Of a stretch of 64,000 nt of DNA, positions 9,815 through 16,388 are shown one piece after another. The DNA lies in the NCBI RefSeq assembly GCF_050920415.1, contig NZ_CP169309.1; one strand, written 5' to 3'. The notes beneath the pieces are model-generated. The model did no database searches. It was not told the origin of the DNA and saw nothing but the letters and a program-made list of their open reading frames with translations. The DNA is from Escherichia coli (lineage in GTDB: Bacteria > Pseudomonadota > Gammaproteobacteria > Enterobacterales > Enterobacteriaceae). Made by a program: the position numbers and the translations under genes. Position 1 is the stretch's first letter. Every line of letters begins with the position of its first letter.

Positions 9815-9975
9815 ACGCTGAAACGGGAAAGCCCCTCCCGAGGAAGGGGCCTTAAATAAGGAAAGGGTCATGATGAAGTGGATCATCATCGTGGTGCTCT
9901 TAGTCGTTAGCTACCCAGCTTACTAAGACTACCAGGGCGGGGGAAACCCCGCTCTACCCTCACTCCTGAAAGTAT
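9815..9975 (-). ncRNA. Sib-family antisense sRNA (antitoxin), copy 1; boundaries approximate
   Basis: Inferred from the known Sib/Ibs geometry (sRNA fully overlaps the toxin ORF on the opposite strand); minus-strand hairpin GCCCCUUCC-UCG-GGAGGGGC followed by a U-containing tract near 9820-9845 could be its terminator. Confidence 0.4.
9870..9926 (+). CDS. Ibs-family type I toxin, copy 1 (18 aa: MMKWIIIVVLLVVSYPAY)
   Basis: ATG ATG AAG ... TAC TAA read directly; preceded by aaggaaagg Shine-Dalgarno; not in ORF track (below size cutoff). Resembles E. coli IbsA/IbsB peptides. Confidence 0.6.
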   Translation: MMKWIIIVVLLVVSYPAY

Positions 9976-10142
9976 GCCTTCACAATCAGATTGTCAATCC
10001 GCAGGCTTTGTAGTCTGCGATCCTGCCAGCAAATATTCTTTGCGAGACGTTACGCAATAATCACAGATGAAACTATTTTATCTACGCGTTAGCGATAGAC
10101 TGCATTCAGGGCAAAAGGAGGTAGGCCGCCGATTTCAGCGGG

Positions 10143-10303
10143 ACGCTGAAACGGGAAAGCCCCTCCCGAGGAAGGGGCCTTAAATAAGGAAAGGGTCATG
10201 ATGAAGATACTCATCATCGTGGTGCTCTTAGTCATTAGCTTACCGGCTTACTAAGACTACCAGGGCGGGGGAAACCCCGCTCTACCCTCACTCCTGAAAG
10301 TAT
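10143..10303 (-). ncRNA. Sib-family antisense sRNA, copy 2; boundaries approximate
   Basis: By position relative to Ibs copy 2, same repeat unit. Confidence 0.4.
10198..10254 (+). CDS. Ibs-family type I toxin, copy 2 (18 aa: MMKILIIVVLLVISLPAY)
   Basis: Same architecture as copy 1, 328 bp downstream. Confidence 0.6.
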   Translation: MMKILIIVVLLVISLPAY

Positions 10304-10470
10304 GCCTTCACAATCAGATTGTCAATCCGCAGGCTTTGTAGTCTGCGATCCTGCCAGCAAATATTCTTTGCGAGACGTTACGCAATAATCACATGTGAAA
10401 CTATTTTATCTGCAAGTTAGCGATAGACTGCTTGCATGGCGAAAGGAGGTAGGCCGCCGATTTCAGCGGG

Positions 10471-10631
10471 ACGCTGAAACGGGAAAGCCCCTCCCGAGGA
10501 AGGGGCCTTAAATAAGGAAAGGGTCATGATGAAGCTACTCATCATCGTGGTGCTCTTAGTTATTAGCTGGCCAGCTTACTAAGACTACCAGGGCGGGGGA
10601 AACCCCGCTCTACCCTCACTCCTGAAGTTAT
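10471..10631 (-). ncRNA. Sib-family antisense sRNA, copy 3; boundaries approximate
   Basis: By position relative to Ibs copy 3; the 5' flank of this unit is divergent so the sRNA may be altered. Confidence 0.3.
10526..10582 (+). CDS. Ibs-family type I toxin, copy 3 (18 aa: MMKLLIIVVLLVISWPAY)
   Basis: Same architecture; the distal part of this repeat unit diverges after the ORF. Confidence 0.55.
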   Translation: MMKLLIIVVLLVISWPAY

Positions 10632-10799
10632 GTTACTCCACCCTTATTGTCAATCTGTAAGTCCACGTTCTTGCGGGGCGAATAGCAAAACCCTCTGCGC
10701 TTATGGGCCGAATTCTGAAAGTTGCTTTGCCTGCTCTTATTTCATTATTGCAGTCGGTATGATACCGGACCTCAATAATTCTCTAAGAAAGGATTTCTT

Positions 10800-11459
10800 A
10801 TGAGCGAACAAATCACGTTTGCCACCAGCGATTTTGCCAGTAACCCGGAACCACGTTGCCCCTGCATTTTGCTGTTGGATGTTTCTGGTTCGATGAGTGG
10901 TAGACCTATTAATGAACTTAACGCCGGATTGGTTACCTTTCGCGATGAGCTGCTTGCCGATTCGCTGGCCTTAAAAAGAGTGGAACTCGGTATTGTGACG
11001 TTCGGCCCGGTGCATGTGGAACAACCATTTACCAGCGCCGCTAATTTTTTCCCGCCCATCCTGTTTGCCCAGGGCGATACACCAATGGGGGCCGCCATTA
11101 CCAAAGCCCTGAATATGGTTGAGGAGCGCAAACGTGAGTATCGCGCCAATGGTATTTCCTATTATCGTCCGTGGATTTTCCTGATTACCGATGGCGCACC
11201 AACCGATGAGTGGCAGGCTGCTGCCAACAAGGTGTTTCAGGGGGAAGAAGATAAGAAGTTTGCCTTCTTTTCCATCGGTGTTCAGGGGGCGGATATGAAG
11301 ACGCTGGCCCAAATCAGCGTTCGTCAGCCTTTGCCTCTTCAAGGATTACAATTCCGCGAACTGTTTAGCTGGTTATCCAGTTCGCTGCGTTCGGTTTCCC
11401 GCTCCACGCCGGGAATGGAAGTTGTACTGGAAGCGCCAAAAGGCTGGACGTCAGTGTGA
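10800..11459 (+). CDS. yegL: von Willebrand factor A (vWA) domain protein YegL
   Basis: 219 aa; MIDAS-like motif DVSGSMSG near the N-terminus and ITDGAPTD later. Confidence 0.85.
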
Positions 11460-12217
11460 GCTGGCGTCTGGTTTATGCATCAGCCGTTGGAACGTCGCAC
11501 ATCAGCGCTGACTTGTCTTGCCAGGATGCCTGCCAGATGCAGGTTGTCTGGCTAAATGACCAGCAGCCATTATTGACGGTATTTGTCGCTGATGGCGCAG
11601 GCAGCGTTTCGCAGGGTGGCGAAGGTGCGACGCTTGCCGTCAATGAAGCGATGGCTTATATGATGCAAAAAGTGCAGGGCGGGGAATTGGGGCTTAATGA
11701 TGTCCTCGCAACGGATATTGTGCTGACCGTTCGTCAGCGACTTTTTGCCGAGGCGGAAGCTAAAGAATTAGCAGTTCGTGATTTTGCCTGCACGTTTCTG
11801 GGACTGATTTCATCGCCTAACGGCACATTGATTATGCAGATTGGCGATGGCGGCGTGGTGGTAGATTTGGGTCACGATCTGCAATTGCCGCTCACGCCGA
11901 TGGTGGGTGAATATGCCAACATGACGCATTTCATTACCGATGAAGATGCCGTTTCCAGACTTGAAACTTTCACCAGCACTGAGCGTGCGCATAGAGTTGC
12001 AGCATTTACGGATGGTATTCAGAGACTGGCGTTAAATATGCTGGATAATTCTCCGCATGTGCCTTTCTTTACCCCGTTTTTCAATGGACTGGCGTCAGCA
12101 ACGCAGGAACAACTCGATTTATTACCTGAATTGTTAAAGCAGTTTTTGTCCAGCCCAGCGGTAAACGAGCGTACCGATGATGATAAAACGTTAGCACTGG
12201 CTATGTGGACAGAATGA
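11456..12217 (+). CDS. yegK: PP2C-family Ser/Thr protein phosphatase YegK (PphC)
   Basis: 253 aa; GTG start at 11456 overlaps the yegL stop (GTGA); metal-binding-like motifs FVADGAGS and IGDGGVVV. Confidence 0.8.
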
Positions 12218-12281
12218 ACATCGCATGGCGGTTGAAGACAACGGTTCAACCGCCAGTTTAAGCAATCAATATAATGGCTGG

Positions 12282-12743
12282 CTAGCGAACTAATTTTGCT
12301 CTTAGCTCGTCGGCTTCTTCTTTTGGATAGGTGACCAATAAAGGATCAATGGTATAACCACCGTAAATTTTATCCCCGCGCGTATACATCCAGTCTGAAA
12401 TATCTTCTTTCTTGATTTTCCACTCCTGGCCATATTCTACGTTTGTAACAATACCAGGGTCATTGCTTATTATACCAATAAACATGCCGTTAGAATAAGT
12501 GACATCCGTGAGCCAGAAATGCTCGGTTTCTCCGCGATCGGTTATCGGGGCTTTGACTGCGAAAGTATCAGCATCTTTTTTATTCATAACTTCGATGAAT
12601 TGATCGGTTTCTTTCCGCGCATGTTTAATCGCGTCAGACATCGCCTTTTTATCATAACCTCCTGTCACTAACGTATCCGAAATCTCACTAAAGCCCGCGG
12701 TAGTAAAAAATAGCAGACTCAACATAAGTAATATCTTTTTCAT
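12282..12743 (-). CDS. yegJ: Secreted small protein YegJ (DUF2314-like)
   Basis: 153 aa with N-terminal signal-peptide-like MKKILLMLSLLFFTTAGFS; divergent to yegI. Confidence 0.7.
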   Translation of the reverse strand: MKKILLMLSLLFFTTAGFSEISDTLVTGGYDKKAMSDAIKHARKETDQFIEVMNKKDADTFAVKAPITDRGETEHFWLTDVTYSNGMFIGIISNDPGIVTNVEYGQEWKIKKEDISDWMYTRGDKIYGGYTIDPLLVTYPKEEADELRAKLVR

Positions 12744-12943
12744 TTTTTCTCCAGAATCCCTGTGTAGTAAAAGTTAGCAAAAAACCTGTGGAAGTGAATC
12801 ATTATCAGGTTGGAATTGAATTGTATCCTGATGAAATTGCATTATCATTTTTATTCTTGAGTGGGACTCTTCCAATATAGAAATAATTATAATGGGCAGT
12901 GTTATTATTCATTGAAATATAATATGACTGCCCTTGAAACATT

Positions 12944-14890
12944 ATGAAGACAAATATAAAAGTATTTACATCGACAGGTGAATTGACCACTCTCGGGCGT
13001 GAACTGGGCAAAGGCGGCGAAGGCGCGGTTTATGATATCGAGGAGTTTGTCGATAGCGTTGCCAAGATTTATCACACACCTCCACCCGCCTTAAAACAGG
13101 ACAAACTTAGCTTTATGGCTGCGACAGCTGACGCGCAGTTGTTGAATTATGTCGCCTGGCCGCAGGCAACGCTTCATAGTGGACGAGGTGGGAAGGTTAT
13201 CGGTTTTATGATGCCAAAAGTTTCTGGTAAAGAACCGATTCATATGATCTATAGCCCGGCACATCGTCGTCAGAGTTACCCTCATTGCGCGTGGGATTTT
13301 CTCCTCTATGTTGCGCGCAATATTGCTTCATCTTTTGCTACGGTTCACGAGCACGGGCACGTCGTGGGTGACGTAAACCAGAACAGCTTTATGGTAGGCC
13401 GTGACAGCAAAGTGGTGTTGATTGATAGCGACTCCTTTCAGATTAACGCCACTGGAACGCTGCATTTATGCGAAGTCGGCGTGTCGCATTTTACGCCGCC
13501 AGAGCTGCAAACCTTGCCATCATTTGTCGGCTTTGAACGCACCGCGAATCACGATAATTTTGGCCTTGCGTTGCTGATTTTTCACGTATTGTTTGGTGGG
13601 CGGCATCCTTATTCTGGTGTGCCGCTTATCTCTGAGGCGGGTAATGCGCTGGAGACGGATATTGCCCATTTTCGTTATGCCTACGCGTCAGACAATCAGA
13701 GACGTGGCTTAAAACCGCCGCCACGATCGATTCCGCTATCGATGTTACCGGGTGATGTTGCAGCCATGTTTCAGCAGGCATTCACGGAAAGTGGCGTGGC
13801 AACCGGGCGTCCGACGGCAAAAGCGTGGGTTGCGGCACTTGATTTACTACGCCAACAATTAAAGAAATGTACCGTTTCAGCAATGCATGTTTACCCTTGT
13901 CATTTAACCGACTGCCCGTGGTGTGCGCTGGATAATCAAGGCGTTATCTATTTTATTGATCTCGGCGAAGAGGTCATTACCACCAGCGGTGATTTTGTGC
14001 TGGCGAAAGTCTGGGCGATGGTGATGGCGTCAGTAGCACCACCAGCATTGCAACTGCCATTACCCGATCATTTCCAACCAGCTGGCAGGCCGCTTCCTTT
14101 AGGCCTGTTACGGCGTGAATACATTATTCTGATTGAGATCACACTGTCAGCGTTATCGCTGTTGCTTTGCGGTCTTCAGGCAGAACCGCGTTATATTATT
14201 CTGGTGCCTGTGCTGGCGGCTATCTGGATTATTGGCAGTCTGACAAGCAAAGCTTACAAAGCAGAAGTCCAGCACCGTCGTGAGGTATTTAATCGTGCGA
14301 AAATGGACTATGACCATTTAGTCAGCCAGATCCAACAGTTGGGCGGGTTGGAAGGTTTTATCGCCAAACGGACGATGCTCGAAAAAATGAAGGACGAAAT
14401 TCTCGGTTTACCGGAAGAAGAAAAGCGCGCGGTGGCAGCACTTCACGACACCGCAAGGGAACGGCAGAAGCAGAAGTTTCTGGAGGGATTTTTTATTGAT
14501 GTTGCCTCTATTCCCGGCGTTGGCCCTGCGCGTAAAGCGGCGTTACGGTCTTTTGGTATTGAAACAGCAGCAGATGTTACCCGTCGTGGTGTTAAGCAAG
14601 TGAAAGGGTTTGGTGATCATCTGACACAGGCGGTTATCGACTGGAAAGCGAGTTGCGAACGCCGTTTTGTGTTCAGGCCGAATGAAGCGGTAACGCCAGC
14701 AGACAGACAAGCGGTAATGGCGAAAATGACCGCCAAACGACATCGGCTGGAATCGGCGCTGACTGTCGGCGCGACAGAGTTGCAGCGATTCCGCCTTCAT
14801 GCTCCTGCACGGACCATGCCGTTGATGGAACCATTACGTCAGGCAGCGGAGAAACTGGCTCAGGCGCAGGCTGATTTAAGCCGCTGCTGA
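12944..14890 (+). CDS. yegI: Eukaryotic-like Ser/Thr protein kinase-like membrane protein YegI
   Basis: 648 aa; Gly-rich loop GKGGEGAVY, VAKIY, catalytic-loop-like HGHVVGDVNQN, DSDSF; then CPWC, two hydrophobic helices, C-terminal HhH-like GVGPARKAALRSFGIETAADV. Confidence 0.85.
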   Translation: MKTNIKVFTSTGELTTLGRELGKGGEGAVYDIEEFVDSVAKIYHTPPPALKQDKLSFMAATADAQLLNYVAWPQATLHSGRGGKVIGFMMPKVSGKEPIHMIYSPAHRRQSYPHCAWDFLLYVARNIASSFATVHEHGHVVGDVNQNSFMVGRDSKVVLIDSDSFQINATGTLHLCEVGVSHFTPPELQTLPSFVGFERTANHDNFGLALLIFHVLFGGRHPYSGVPLISEAGNALETDIAHFRYAYASDNQRRGLKPPPRSIPLSMLPGDVAAMFQQAFTESGVATGRPTAKAWVAALDLLRQQLKKCTVSAMHVYPCHLTDCPWCALDNQGVIYFIDLGEEVITTSGDFVLAKVWAMVMASVAPPALQLPLPDHFQPAGRPLPLGLLRREYIILIEITLSALSLLLCGLQAEPRYIILVPVLAAIWIIGSLTSKAYKAEVQHRREVFNRAKMDYDHLVSQIQQLGGLEGFIAKRTMLEKMKDEILGLPEEEKRAVAALHDTARERQKQKFLEGFFIDVASIPGVGPARKAALRSFGIETAADVTRRGVKQVKGFGDHLTQAVIDWKASCERRFVFRPNEAVTPADRQAVMAKMTAKRHRLESALTVGATELQRFRLHAPARTMPLMEPLRQAAEKLAQAQADLSRC

Positions 14891-14902
14891 GCCATTTTTC
14901 AA

Positions 14903-16255
14903 TTAACGAAACACCACTTCTGCCCAACGTGCCAGCCCGGCGGTAACCGACCCAAAGTCATCGCCGCCTGCAATCGGAATGCCCGGCAACTGTTCTGCCA
15001 GCGCTTTTTTAATCAGCGGCGATCGGGCGCTACCACCAGTCAGATAGATGACATCCGGTTTTTCCTGGGCGTTATCCAGCGCCAGTTGCACCTGTTCCAG
15101 AATTCGCGCCAGCGGCTGACTGAGGGCGTTTTCCAGCCCTTGTTGGCTAATCAGTGTTGCCAGCTCATCGCTGATAAACGGCAGCGATGCGCGGGTTTCC
15201 GCTGCGCTGGAAAGGGCGATTTTGCTCTCTTCCGCGCTGCGTACCAGCCGATAACTTAAACGCTGACGCCAGACTTTCTGTAACAGGGCCACTTTCTCCG
15301 GTTCGCGGGCGTCGCGTACCAGATCGTTAAGCAGACGACCGTTAGCACTACTGTAGAAATCACTCTGCGCAGGTACATCGTTGATGGCAACTGCATTCCA
15401 CCACGGCAGGATCGGCAGGGCGATGCCTTTTTCAGTTTCGCCACCCATGCCCAGTAATGGCATCAGATTTTTAAACGCCAGTGCGATATCCAGATCGTTA
15501 CCGCCAATACGGCAACCACTGTGACCCAGCAGGCTGGCTTCACGATCGAGGCGCGAACGCCACTGTGGCCCCATTAGCAGTAAAGAACAGTCAGTCGTAC
15601 CACCGCCGATATCCACCACCAGTACGCGTTTTTCTTCCTGCAAGGTGGCTTCGTAATCCAGCCCAGCCGCCACCGGCTCGTACTGGAATACCACGTCCTT
15701 AAACCCGGCACGCTTCGCTGCACGCTCCAGAATCCCTTGTGCCTGGGCGTTTGCCTCATCGCCGCCCAGCCCCTGGAAGTTGATCGGGCGACCAATCACC
15801 GCCTGGGTAATCGCTTCTGGCAGCTGTGTCTGGGCCTGCTTGCGAATGTGCAACATCATTGCGCAGACCAGATCCTCAAACAGCGCCACCTGCTGCGGTT
15901 TTAAGCCGCTGGCACCGAGGAACGATTTTGGTGATTTAACAAACCACACTTCTTCCGGATCATCAATGTACTGCGCCAGTGAGGAAAGGCCGAACTGCAC
16001 GCTTTTCGCCGTGACATCGATATCTTCTTCGCGGTTATAACGAATCGCCCGACGTAATAGCGCCTGCGTTTCATTGTCGTCTGCCGGAACATCATGATGG
16101 CGGTACAGCCATTCGCTTACCGCTTCACGCGTTGGCGCGCAAAGCATTGAAGGCAGCAGCGTGCTGTCGTTTTCCATTTTCAGTAATTGCGGTTTACCGT
16201 CACGCATGACCGCCACTGAACAGTTTGCTGTACCGTAATCAAAACCAATAAACAC
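14903..16255 (-). CDS. yegD: Hsp70/actin-fold ATPase-like protein YegD
   Basis: ORF track frame is 471 aa; probable GTG start at complement(16253..16255) gives ~450 aa beginning (V/M)FIGFDYGTANCSVAV; motifs DYGTAN and DIGGGTTD. Confidence 0.8.
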   Translation of the reverse strand: MFIGFDYGTANCSVAVMRDGKPQLLKMENDSTLLPSMLCAPTREAVSEWLYRHHDVPADDNETQALLRRAIRYNREEDIDVTAKSVQFGLSSLAQYIDDPEEVWFVKSPKSFLGASGLKPQQVALFEDLVCAMMLHIRKQAQTQLPEAITQAVIGRPINFQGLGGDEANAQAQGILERAAKRAGFKDVVFQYEPVAAGLDYEATLQEEKRVLVVDIGGGTTDCSLLLMGPQWRSRLDREASLLGHSGCRIGGNDLDIALAFKNLMPLLGMGGETEKGIALPILPWWNAVAINDVPAQSDFYSSANGRLLNDLVRDAREPEKVALLQKVWRQRLSYRLVRSAEESKIALSSAAETRASLPFISDELATLISQQGLENALSQPLARILEQVQLALDNAQEKPDVIYLTGGSARSPLIKKALAEQLPGIPIAGGDDFGSVTAGLARWAEVVFR

Positions 16256-16388
16256 GAAATAATCCCCATGCCGGTGAAGAAGGGGCGTGACTTTAGCGAA
16301 ATGTTGCCGTCGCGACAACCGGAATATGAAAGCAAAGCGCAGCGTCTGAATAACGTTTATGCTGAAAGCGGATTAACAAGGAGATGCG

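Follow-up and report, generated by a model that had tools for sequence, protein, structure and literature searches.

The window analysed here is a 64,000-nucleotide stretch of DNA from a genome labelled Escherichia coli (contig NZ_CP169309.1), and the subject is the yegL-yegK-yegI locus within it, together with the adjoining genes yegJ and yegD. In RefSeq the genes are named yegL (vWA, von Willebrand A), pphC (PP2C), yegJ, "protein kinase YegI" and yegD. A first-pass annotation, made from the letters of the window, had described a vWA, PP2C and kinase-like module of five genes at this place, and all of its open reading frames (ORFs) were present as described. The end of its span, position 16318, corresponds to the TTG start of the longest yegD ORF on the minus strand, and was moved to 16255, the yegD start annotated in K-12. 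The genes are as follows.

10800-11459, plus strand: yegL, 219 aa, TerY-type von Willebrand A protein
11456-12217, plus strand: yegK (= pphC), 253 aa, PP2C phosphatase with a GTG start
12282-12743, minus strand: yegJ, 153 aa, DUF2314 protein with an N-terminal signal-like sequence
12944-14890, plus strand: yegI, 648 aa, atypical Hanks-type kinase
14903-16255, minus strand: yegD, Hsp70/actin-fold protein, convergent with yegI

It is nearly certain that the functional unit is the three-gene operon yegL-yegK(pphC)-yegI, both in its identity and in its boundaries. One genome per species was scanned with conserved YegI peptides, which resulted in 49 related loci, 45 of them including upstream DNA. 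YegL and YegK homologues were found directly upstream of YegI, on the same strand, in 44 of these 45 loci, so that the expected co-occurrence of the three genes was borne out by the neighbourhood check. No fourth recurrent gene was detected beside the triad by all-against-all clustering of the flanking ORFs of the related loci. The five-gene extent proposed at first was not retained: yegJ was present in 1924 of 5426 complete E. coli genomes but absent from each of the 49 related loci, and yegD is adjacent to the triad in Escherichia only. The triad locus itself was found in 5417 of the 5426 complete E. coli genomes by megablast. Comparison of the window with K-12 gave dN/dS values of 0.06 for yegL, 0.18 for yegK and 0.08 for yegI, and all genes were found to be under purifying selection. 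These values indicate that the yegLKI genes are maintained for function, despite barely detectable expression in the laboratory.

Triads were observed in beta-, gamma- and deltaproteobacteria, Planctomycetota, Flavobacteriales, Akkermansiaceae and Tanganyikabacteria. At the level of phyla the distribution runs from Proteobacteria to Planctomycetota, Bacteroidota, Verrucomicrobiota and Deinococcota, and it includes many megaplasmids. Plasmid-borne triads were seen in Pseudomonas (including pQBR103), Cupriavidus, Ralstonia, Rhizobium, Sinorhizobium, Sphingobium and Deinococcus, and the order vWA-PP2C-kinase is kept on the Sphingobium, Deinococcus, Rhizobium and Pseudomonas plasmids. YegI belongs to a large kinase family, 5782 clusters (50% identity) being matched at E<=1e-30, and an architecture of about 645 aa is found in most of the best 150 YegI-family clusters. 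No deposited phage genome encodes YegI. The PHROG entries phrog_28389, phrog_37072 and phrog_37888 are near-identical to the three proteins (505, 483 and 1502 bits for YegL, YegK and YegI), and were rejected as evidence of a phage origin; since no deposited phage encodes YegI, these entries are probably prophage-boundary artefacts.

Two of the related loci departed from the common arrangement. A Deinococcus metagenome-assembled genome (MAG; L049) encodes a YegI-like kinase of 26% identity, and its 3.4 kb of upstream DNA gave neither vWA nor PP2C gene, even with the family profiles. It is the only such locus with upstream DNA, and a Deinococcus plasmid (L059) carries the full triad. In a Candidatus Methylophosphatis MAG (L028), yegL fragments lie about 6.6 kb apart and a further yegI fragment is found about 4.6 kb downstream. 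This triad looks disrupted, which could be due to insertions or to misassembly.

YegL matched the Pfam VWA domain (E=1.2e-9) and contains the motif DVSGSMSG, as read earlier from the translation. Its metal ion-dependent adhesion site (MIDAS) is intact, residues D27, S29, S31, T94 and D131 being present and conserved in an alignment of 42 orthologues. YegL is the most conserved of the triad proteins, its profile still giving E=1e-94 to 1e-108 in the triads that are most distant. A Ser-rich C-terminal motif of 21 residues is also conserved. As this motif probably coincides in part with the final helix of the vWA fold, its conservation may be structural; a role as phospho-acceptor was kept as speculation only. 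YegK matched Pfam PP2C_2 (E=1.3e-50), in agreement with the PP2C assignment. Its GTG start overlaps the yegL stop by 4 nt as GTGA, and the translational coupling of the two genes pointed out in the first-pass annotation was thereby reproduced. PphC is known to be an active Mn-dependent PP2C phosphatase, which dephosphorylates YegI (10.1101/303594).

YegI is composed of four parts.

12944-13852, plus strand: residues 1-303, atypical Hanks-type Ser/Thr kinase domain
13859-13936, plus strand: residues 306-331, small beta Zn-ribbon-like element with CPWC
14114-14263, plus strand: residues ~391-440, transmembrane helical hairpin
14264-14890, plus strand: residues 441-648, cytoplasmic helical/coiled-coil module with an (HhH)2-type (helix-hairpin-helix) motif and a long C-terminal helix

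The motifs GKGGEGAVY, VAKIY, HGHVVGDVNQN, DSDSF and CPWC, which had been used to propose a kinase-like N-terminal half, were all found in the sequence. YegI was without a match to Pfam Pkinase, and its sole Pfam match was HHH_5 (residues 517-552, E=0.0025), corresponding to the C-terminal HhH-like motif already suspected. Homologues at 32-33% identity matched Pkinase at 1e-6 to 1e-9. A profile built from 41 family members matched the solved kinases TTK (E=1.7e-5) and PknE (E=1.7e-3), with an alignment spanning the P-loop, the catalytic loop, the DSD (=DFG) and the FTPPE (=APE) regions. VGD(VNQN) is found where HRD is expected, and DSD where DFG is expected. Residues K41, D143, D161, D163 and S164 are invariant in the family alignment. 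The catalytic Lys, the catalytic Asp and the bilobal fold of Ser/Thr kinases of the eukaryotic type (eSTKs) were thus all seen in the profile and fold matches. Judged by these matches, the kinase assignment is sound, though Pfam misses the domain. It is in agreement with published work, in which YegI autophosphorylates on Ser in the activation segment, prefers Mn and follows second-order (dimer-like) kinetics; activity was abolished by K39D and D141N (numbering of a 646-aa protein) and the DSD motif was also needed (10.1101/819920).

In the zinc element C309, H315, C324 and C327 are invariant, and strands were placed at 306-308 and 316-318 in the AlphaFold2 (AF2) model. The two hydrophobic helices of the first-pass annotation were seen in the same model at ~391-440, as helices 391-411 and 417 onward. 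In published PhoA-LacZ topology studies YegI crosses the inner membrane twice, and its two termini are both cytoplasmic (10.1101/819920). The region 441-648 was modelled with a pLDDT of 93. Its HhH region, residues 517-573 (IPGVGPARKAALRSFGIETAADV...VKGFGDHLT), contains the hairpins GVGPARK and KGFGDHL, both conserved, and is followed by a C-terminal helical pair. Matches to HhH sequences in the PDB were marginal (E=0.05-0.5), and the C-terminal Foldseek match, the Rad51 N-terminal domain, had a probability of 0.95 but E=0.63. A distant YegI homologue carries an additional Top1-type C4 zinc finger at the C-terminus.

The TerY-P triad of Anantharaman, Iyer & Aravind (2012) is described in PMC11090510 and PMC4978471 as consisting of a TerY-like vWA protein, a PP2C and a kinase with a fused zinc ribbon, which were proposed to form a phosphorylation switch. 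The ter cluster of IncHI plasmids has the order terW, vWA, TerD-family, vWA, vWA with a TerY-C domain, PP2C, kinase. YegL matched the TerY vWA proteins of this cluster in BLASTP at 4e-25 and 7e-19, with a common C-terminal motif F-x-W-[LIV]-[ST]-x-S, and the YegL family profile matched all three TerY paralogues at 1e-23 to 1e-28. For YegK and the ter-cluster PP2C, the family profile gave 1.6e-15 and pairwise BLASTP 6e-5. The YegI family was aligned with the ter kinase by hhalign with a probability of 97.7% and E=1.4e-12, over 321 columns reaching through the CPxC zinc element, and the CPWC element of YegI aligns with the CPYC element of the ter kinase. By homology yegLKI is a member of the TerY-P triad family, because each of its proteins has a homologue in the ter cluster, where the order of the genes is the same. 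A MIDAS-bearing vWA protein, an adjacent PP2C, a kinase followed by a zinc ribbon and a co-oriented, conserved cassette were all found. The idea of an undescribed system is accordingly not supported, as the vWA-PP2C-kinase unit corresponds to the published TerY-P triad and the enzymology of PphC and YegI is also published (10.1101/303594, 10.1101/819920).

Sequence and model together define yegLKI as a subtype by its kinase, which has a Zn-ribbon and a membrane hairpin and ends in an (HhH)2/coiled-coil module. The three components, their order and the kinase with its CPxC Zn-ribbon are shared with the ter cluster, whereas the hairpin and the C-terminal module are additions relative to the ter kinase. 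The ter triad is linked to TerZABCDE/TerD and has three vWA genes; yegLKI has one vWA gene and none of these Ter genes beside it. In phmmer searches, TerD and TerZ had matches in the ter plasmid only and none in the YegI-family loci examined. The PP2C of the ter cluster is also longer, 545 aa compared to 253 aa for YegK.

A related TerY-P module has been reported to protect on its own against T7-like phages (Gao 2020, cited from PMC7699616 and PMC11090510). Its likeness to yegLKI lies in a stand-alone set of vWA, PP2C and Ser/Thr kinase in defence-island contexts; the kinase tested by Gao ends in an OB-fold according to PMC11090510, whereas YegI ends in transmembrane helices and HhH. No OB-fold was found in the YegI C-terminus by Pfam or in the structure model. 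CoCoNuT systems of type II/III-A, which are McrBC-related, embed a vWA-PP2C-kinase(ZnR) triad as an accessory signalling cassette (PMC11090510). Unlike these triads yegLKI is free-standing, and no McrBC/CnuH genes are conserved beside it.

Compared to the pairs of eSTK and cognate phosphatase (eSTP) PrkC/PrpC and PknB/PstP, yegLKI differs in having no PASTA or other extracellular sensor, in its VGD and DSD motifs, in its obligatory vWA partner and in a distribution resembling that of mobile elements. A post-translational on/off switch is likewise built from a Hanks kinase, a PP2C and a vWA domain in the PpkA/PppA threonine-phosphorylation pathway of the type VI secretion system (T6SS). There the kinase PpkA itself contains the vWA, as a fused periplasmic domain, and the pathway acts on Fha1 and T6SS assembly. 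In the flanking-ORF clustering, neither T6SS nor FHA genes were found to recur beside yegLKI. Single-gene kinase defences, such as PD-T4-6 and the Stk2-type, act through an infection-triggered kinase that phosphorylates many targets, a logic that YegI could have in common. These systems are without vWA and PP2C partners, and the match of YegI to PD-T4-6 is below any membership threshold. Finally, the vWA-MoxR or NTPase-dependent 'ternary' conflict systems, reportedly described by Kaur et al. in 2020, are said to couple a vWA protein to an AAA+/STAND NTPase. The same clustering revealed no NTPase recurring beside the triad, and yegLKI is consequently not placed among the vWA-NTPase ternary systems.

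In the window the operon is interrupted by yegJ. YegJ matched Pfam DUF2314 (E=3e-25) and has an N-terminal signal-like sequence, and its position on the opposite strand between yegK and yegI is as first described. It lies in a segment of low GC content.

12209-12994, no strand assigned: low-GC segment carrying yegJ, 786 bp, 37-42% GC

Alignment to yegJ-less Escherichia loci showed that this segment, present in 35% of E. coli genomes, stands in for about 50 bp of the ancestral yegK/yegI junction. In yegJ-less Escherichia both junctions are 4-nt overlaps, the yegK stop overlapping the yegI start, and the ancestral state was therefore one translationally coupled operon of three genes. The last two codons of yegK are altered by the segment. 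No terminal direct or inverted repeats were found to flank 12209-12994. The first ~16 codons of yegI are also rewritten, to MKTNIKVFTSTGELTTLG compared to VKLTLYTAAGDCVTPG in yegJ-less Escherichia, although the pattern is still similar. The similarity of the new N-terminus points to recombination with a diverged allele more than to a clean insertion. A perfect inverted repeat of 11 nt with an 8-nt loop was observed at 12226-12255 (TGGCGGTTGAA ... TTCAACCGCCA), between the stop codons of the convergent genes yegK and yegJ, and could act as a bidirectional terminator. yegJ is a strain-variable passenger, outside the conserved module. YegJ is reported to bind the N-terminal domain of RNase E, and its overexpression strongly induces yegD in K-12 (PMC13232886).

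YegD was identified as the Hsp70/actin-fold protein that had been recognised convergent to yegI (NCBIfam PRK11678, 809 bits). Its orthologues are 88-91% identical in Salmonella, Citrobacter and Enterobacter. Salmonella and Citrobacter have the order dgcE-alkA-yegD-ibs-mdtABC, with nothing between yegD and ibs and no triad. Among the 49 related loci, yegD adjoins yegI in the four Escherichia loci only. yegD is therefore an ancestral neighbour, vertically inherited in Enterobacteriaceae and outside the module, and the empty yegD-ibs site shows the triad to be an insertion in the Escherichia lineage beside the resident yegD. The closest YegI outside Escherichia is only about 62% identical and lies at a different locus. 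The low identity of YegI compared to that of YegD and the empty site both argue for a horizontal origin, the triad having entered the ancestor of Escherichia between yegD and the sib/ibs locus.

The surroundings of the triad elsewhere were studied in ten Pfam-annotated contexts outside Escherichia. Defence or mobile-element genes were found within 10 kb in seven of the ten; the counts were not set against a background rate and are suggestive rather than statistical. The contexts with such genes included the following.

Piscinibacter: upstream an SLFN-type helicase, MazG-like, ScoMcrA_N/NOV_C, HIT and SNase genes; downstream BrxR and JetB
Chromobacterium: AbiH and a KAP NTPase beside the triad, within a Tn7-like element
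Klebsiella spallanzanii: GmrSD, SymE and type I restriction-modification (RM) within 10 kb
A metagenomic contig: type I RM and Mrr adjacent to the triad
Serratia: a P4-type integrase immediately upstream, IS66 downstream
Another contig: BrxR with DUF499, DUF1156 and an SNF2 helicase
Another contig: Prok-E2/ThiF-JAB, M78 with a helix-turn-helix domain, a dCTP-deaminase-family (DCD) gene and a resolvase

Some further genes were observed near triads. A very conserved basic protein of about 68 aa (MKFGMRKPS...APRGWGWLTNPKRAAYNRVYSRTTFS...) is encoded next to triads of several betaproteobacterial loci. It lies upstream of the vWA gene in L051 (7719-8474), L009, L056, L063 and L065, and downstream of the kinase in L015 (11933-12154). 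In L051, L063 and L065 its gene is followed by a gene for an SNase-family nuclease. The protein matched only the N-termini of PHROG families of unknown function; together with the SNase it may form an accessory or effector pair specific to this lineage. On the ter plasmid, a gene for a DUF4236 protein directly precedes the TerY genes (L062, 6838-8046). Such a gene was also seen near a yegLKI-type triad on a metagenomic contig (L063, 3962-5182), and DUF4236 could be recurrently associated with TerY-P triads. On the Rhizobium rhizogenes plasmid pColt5.8b (L060, 1401-8575) the triad directly follows an HxsB/HxsC/HxsA His-Xaa-Ser radical-SAM cluster. Next after the triad come an SH3-domain gene and a DUF262 (GmrSD-like) gene, in this order.

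PphC dephosphorylates the autophosphorylating YegI, and the pair therefore constitutes a resettable phospho-switch. YegI would be tethered to the inner membrane by its hairpin, with the (HhH)2/coiled-coil module facing the cytoplasm, and this module is predicted to let YegI bind DNA of any sequence. Other nucleic-acid-binding modules in relatives, such as the Top1-type zinc finger, are in keeping with this. The kinase would then probably be activated by, or act at, DNA that is close to the membrane or damaged. The most economical reading would be a kinase that is associated with DNA or triggered by it, and that PphC resets. YegL could be the third partner through its intact MIDAS, either as a substrate or adaptor of the kinase or as a reader of a phosphorylated or acidic ligand. 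The role would most likely lie in conflict with invading DNA or phages, as defence or abortive infection, or in control of mobile elements, and under laboratory conditions the system would not be transcribed. DNA damage was raised by overproducing either YegI or YegL in a published screen, which lists YegI with an increase in damage of at least 5-fold and YegL among the strong phenotypes (10.1101/354589). Expression of yegLKI was reported to be undetectable or very low in standard conditions (PMC13232886). The defence-island and mobile-element neighbourhoods and the DNA-binding-type C-terminus of the kinase favour a role in conflict or defence. The favoured reading of the whole, a TerY-P operon working as a DNA-cued kinase/phosphatase switch in conflict with invading DNA or phages, is given an even chance of being right, and defence against phages or plasmids, with odds that are about even, is the hypothesis preferred. 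Both DNA sensing and defence are put forward in this reading as hypotheses. The first-pass annotation had considered the role, substrates and trigger to be undefined, and this holds for the literature searched, including a paper of May 2026 that still gives no inducing condition (PMC13232886).

Several observations weigh against a role in defence. No experiment ties yegLKI to phage or plasmid defence, and no report of phage resistance was found in the searched literature. The triad occupies a single fixed site in 99.8% of E. coli genomes, whereas defence systems are normally strain-variable. The standard phage host K-12 carries the triad, albeit interrupted by yegJ and essentially unexpressed. 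Three of the ten contexts outside Escherichia were housekeeping or ambiguous, one metagenomic context being purely housekeeping. DNA binding by the HhH region is a prediction from marginal sequence and fold matches, and YegL as a substrate of YegI is a proposal; conservation of the Ser-rich motif may be structural. PADLOC also missed the locus: YegL matched TerY at E=0.012 over 80 residues, YegK had no match, and YegI had weak matches to PD-T4-6 (E=5.9e-5) and MkoA only, so that neither YegK nor YegI matched a model named TerY-P. A known defence system was consequently not assigned, the PADLOC models not recognising yegLKI.

The foremost rival reading is domestication. The triad would here have become an endogenous signalling module, a housekeeping Ser/Thr phospho-regulatory system serving, for example, stationary-phase exit, dormancy or processes associated with membrane and nucleoid, like PrkC/PrpC or PknB/PstP. 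The fixed locus in nearly all E. coli genomes is readily explained in this way, as are the purely housekeeping context and a purifying selection that matches in strength that on the flanking housekeeping genes, and the published view is likewise that of an eSTK/eSTP pair. However, YegI is without an extracytoplasmic sensor domain, the triad is absent at the syntenic site in Salmonella and Citrobacter, and expression is hardly detected in standard conditions. A patchy spread over several phyla, on megaplasmids, in a Tn7-like element and in integrase islands also fits poorly with a housekeeping function. Domestication is considered rather unlikely. A sensor of metal or xenobiotic stress resembling Ter is improbable. 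On this view, stress from metals or oxyanions would be sensed through the MIDAS vWA and the Mn-dependent enzymes, following the proposal made for TerY, and the homology of all three proteins to the ter-cluster triad, the intact MIDAS of YegL and the preference of both enzymes for Mn are all consistent with it. The original proposal of a metal-sensing phospho-switch is cited in PMC11090510. Against this, no TerD or TerZ homologue was found in any YegI-family locus examined, and the neighbours are RM, Abi and mobile-element genes and not metal-resistance genes. Very improbable, and already largely refuted as a conserved system, is a five-gene system with yegJ and yegD as working parts beside yegL, yegK and yegI. 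The genes are adjacent in the window and, as yegJ overexpression induces yegD in K-12, a common pathway has been speculated upon (PMC13232886). The low-GC yegJ segment interrupts the operon, however, and is confined to about a third of E. coli with no counterpart in the other loci, and yegD is inherited vertically without the triad and is never adjacent to it outside Escherichia.

The locus, the gene names, the enzymology of PphC and YegI and the triad concept are already published, and the module is known but under-characterised. E. coli has few Ser/Thr kinase/phosphatase pairs of the eukaryotic-like kind; YegI and PphC are one of them, and their function is an acknowledged gap. New here are the three-gene boundary, the direct confirmation of TerY-P membership, and the evidence for a horizontal acquisition and for a mobile, defence-island lifestyle elsewhere. 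It is also new that K-12-type strains carry an interrupted operon, and that experiments in K-12 use the interrupted allele. A bolder version of the favoured reading is that nearly every E. coli holds a silent, membrane-anchored, DNA-sensing kinase switch with an anti-phage or anti-plasmid function missed by defence annotation; this is tentative and would sooner prove wrong than right. If true, the switch could act by abortive infection, for example through mass phosphorylation or DNA damage. The yegJ insertion, by uncoupling the operon in K-12-like strains, could then explain why the role went unnoticed in the laboratory host.

The window was 94-95% identical to K-12 MG1655 over its full length, all flanks included, and a locus at least 99% identical to that of the window was found in only 2 of the 5426 complete E. 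coli genomes. A locus-specific divergent allele, with 90-95% identity to most E. coli, was considered and rejected, as the whole window is equally diverged; the divergence is thus an effect of the strain lineage. The source genome belongs to a divergent Escherichia lineage carrying the E. coli label. A consensus scan of the window for promoters and terminators scored no better than shuffled sequence. Between mdtA and yegL, three full-length SIB RNA copies were found on the minus strand, at 9855-9997, 10183-10325 and 10511-10653, each scoring about 139 bits against Rfam RF00113 (sib/ibs type I toxin-antitoxin). At the same site K-12 has two copies (sibA and sibB), and Salmonella and Citrobacter have one Ibs toxin gene. 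The copy number at this site is therefore variable.

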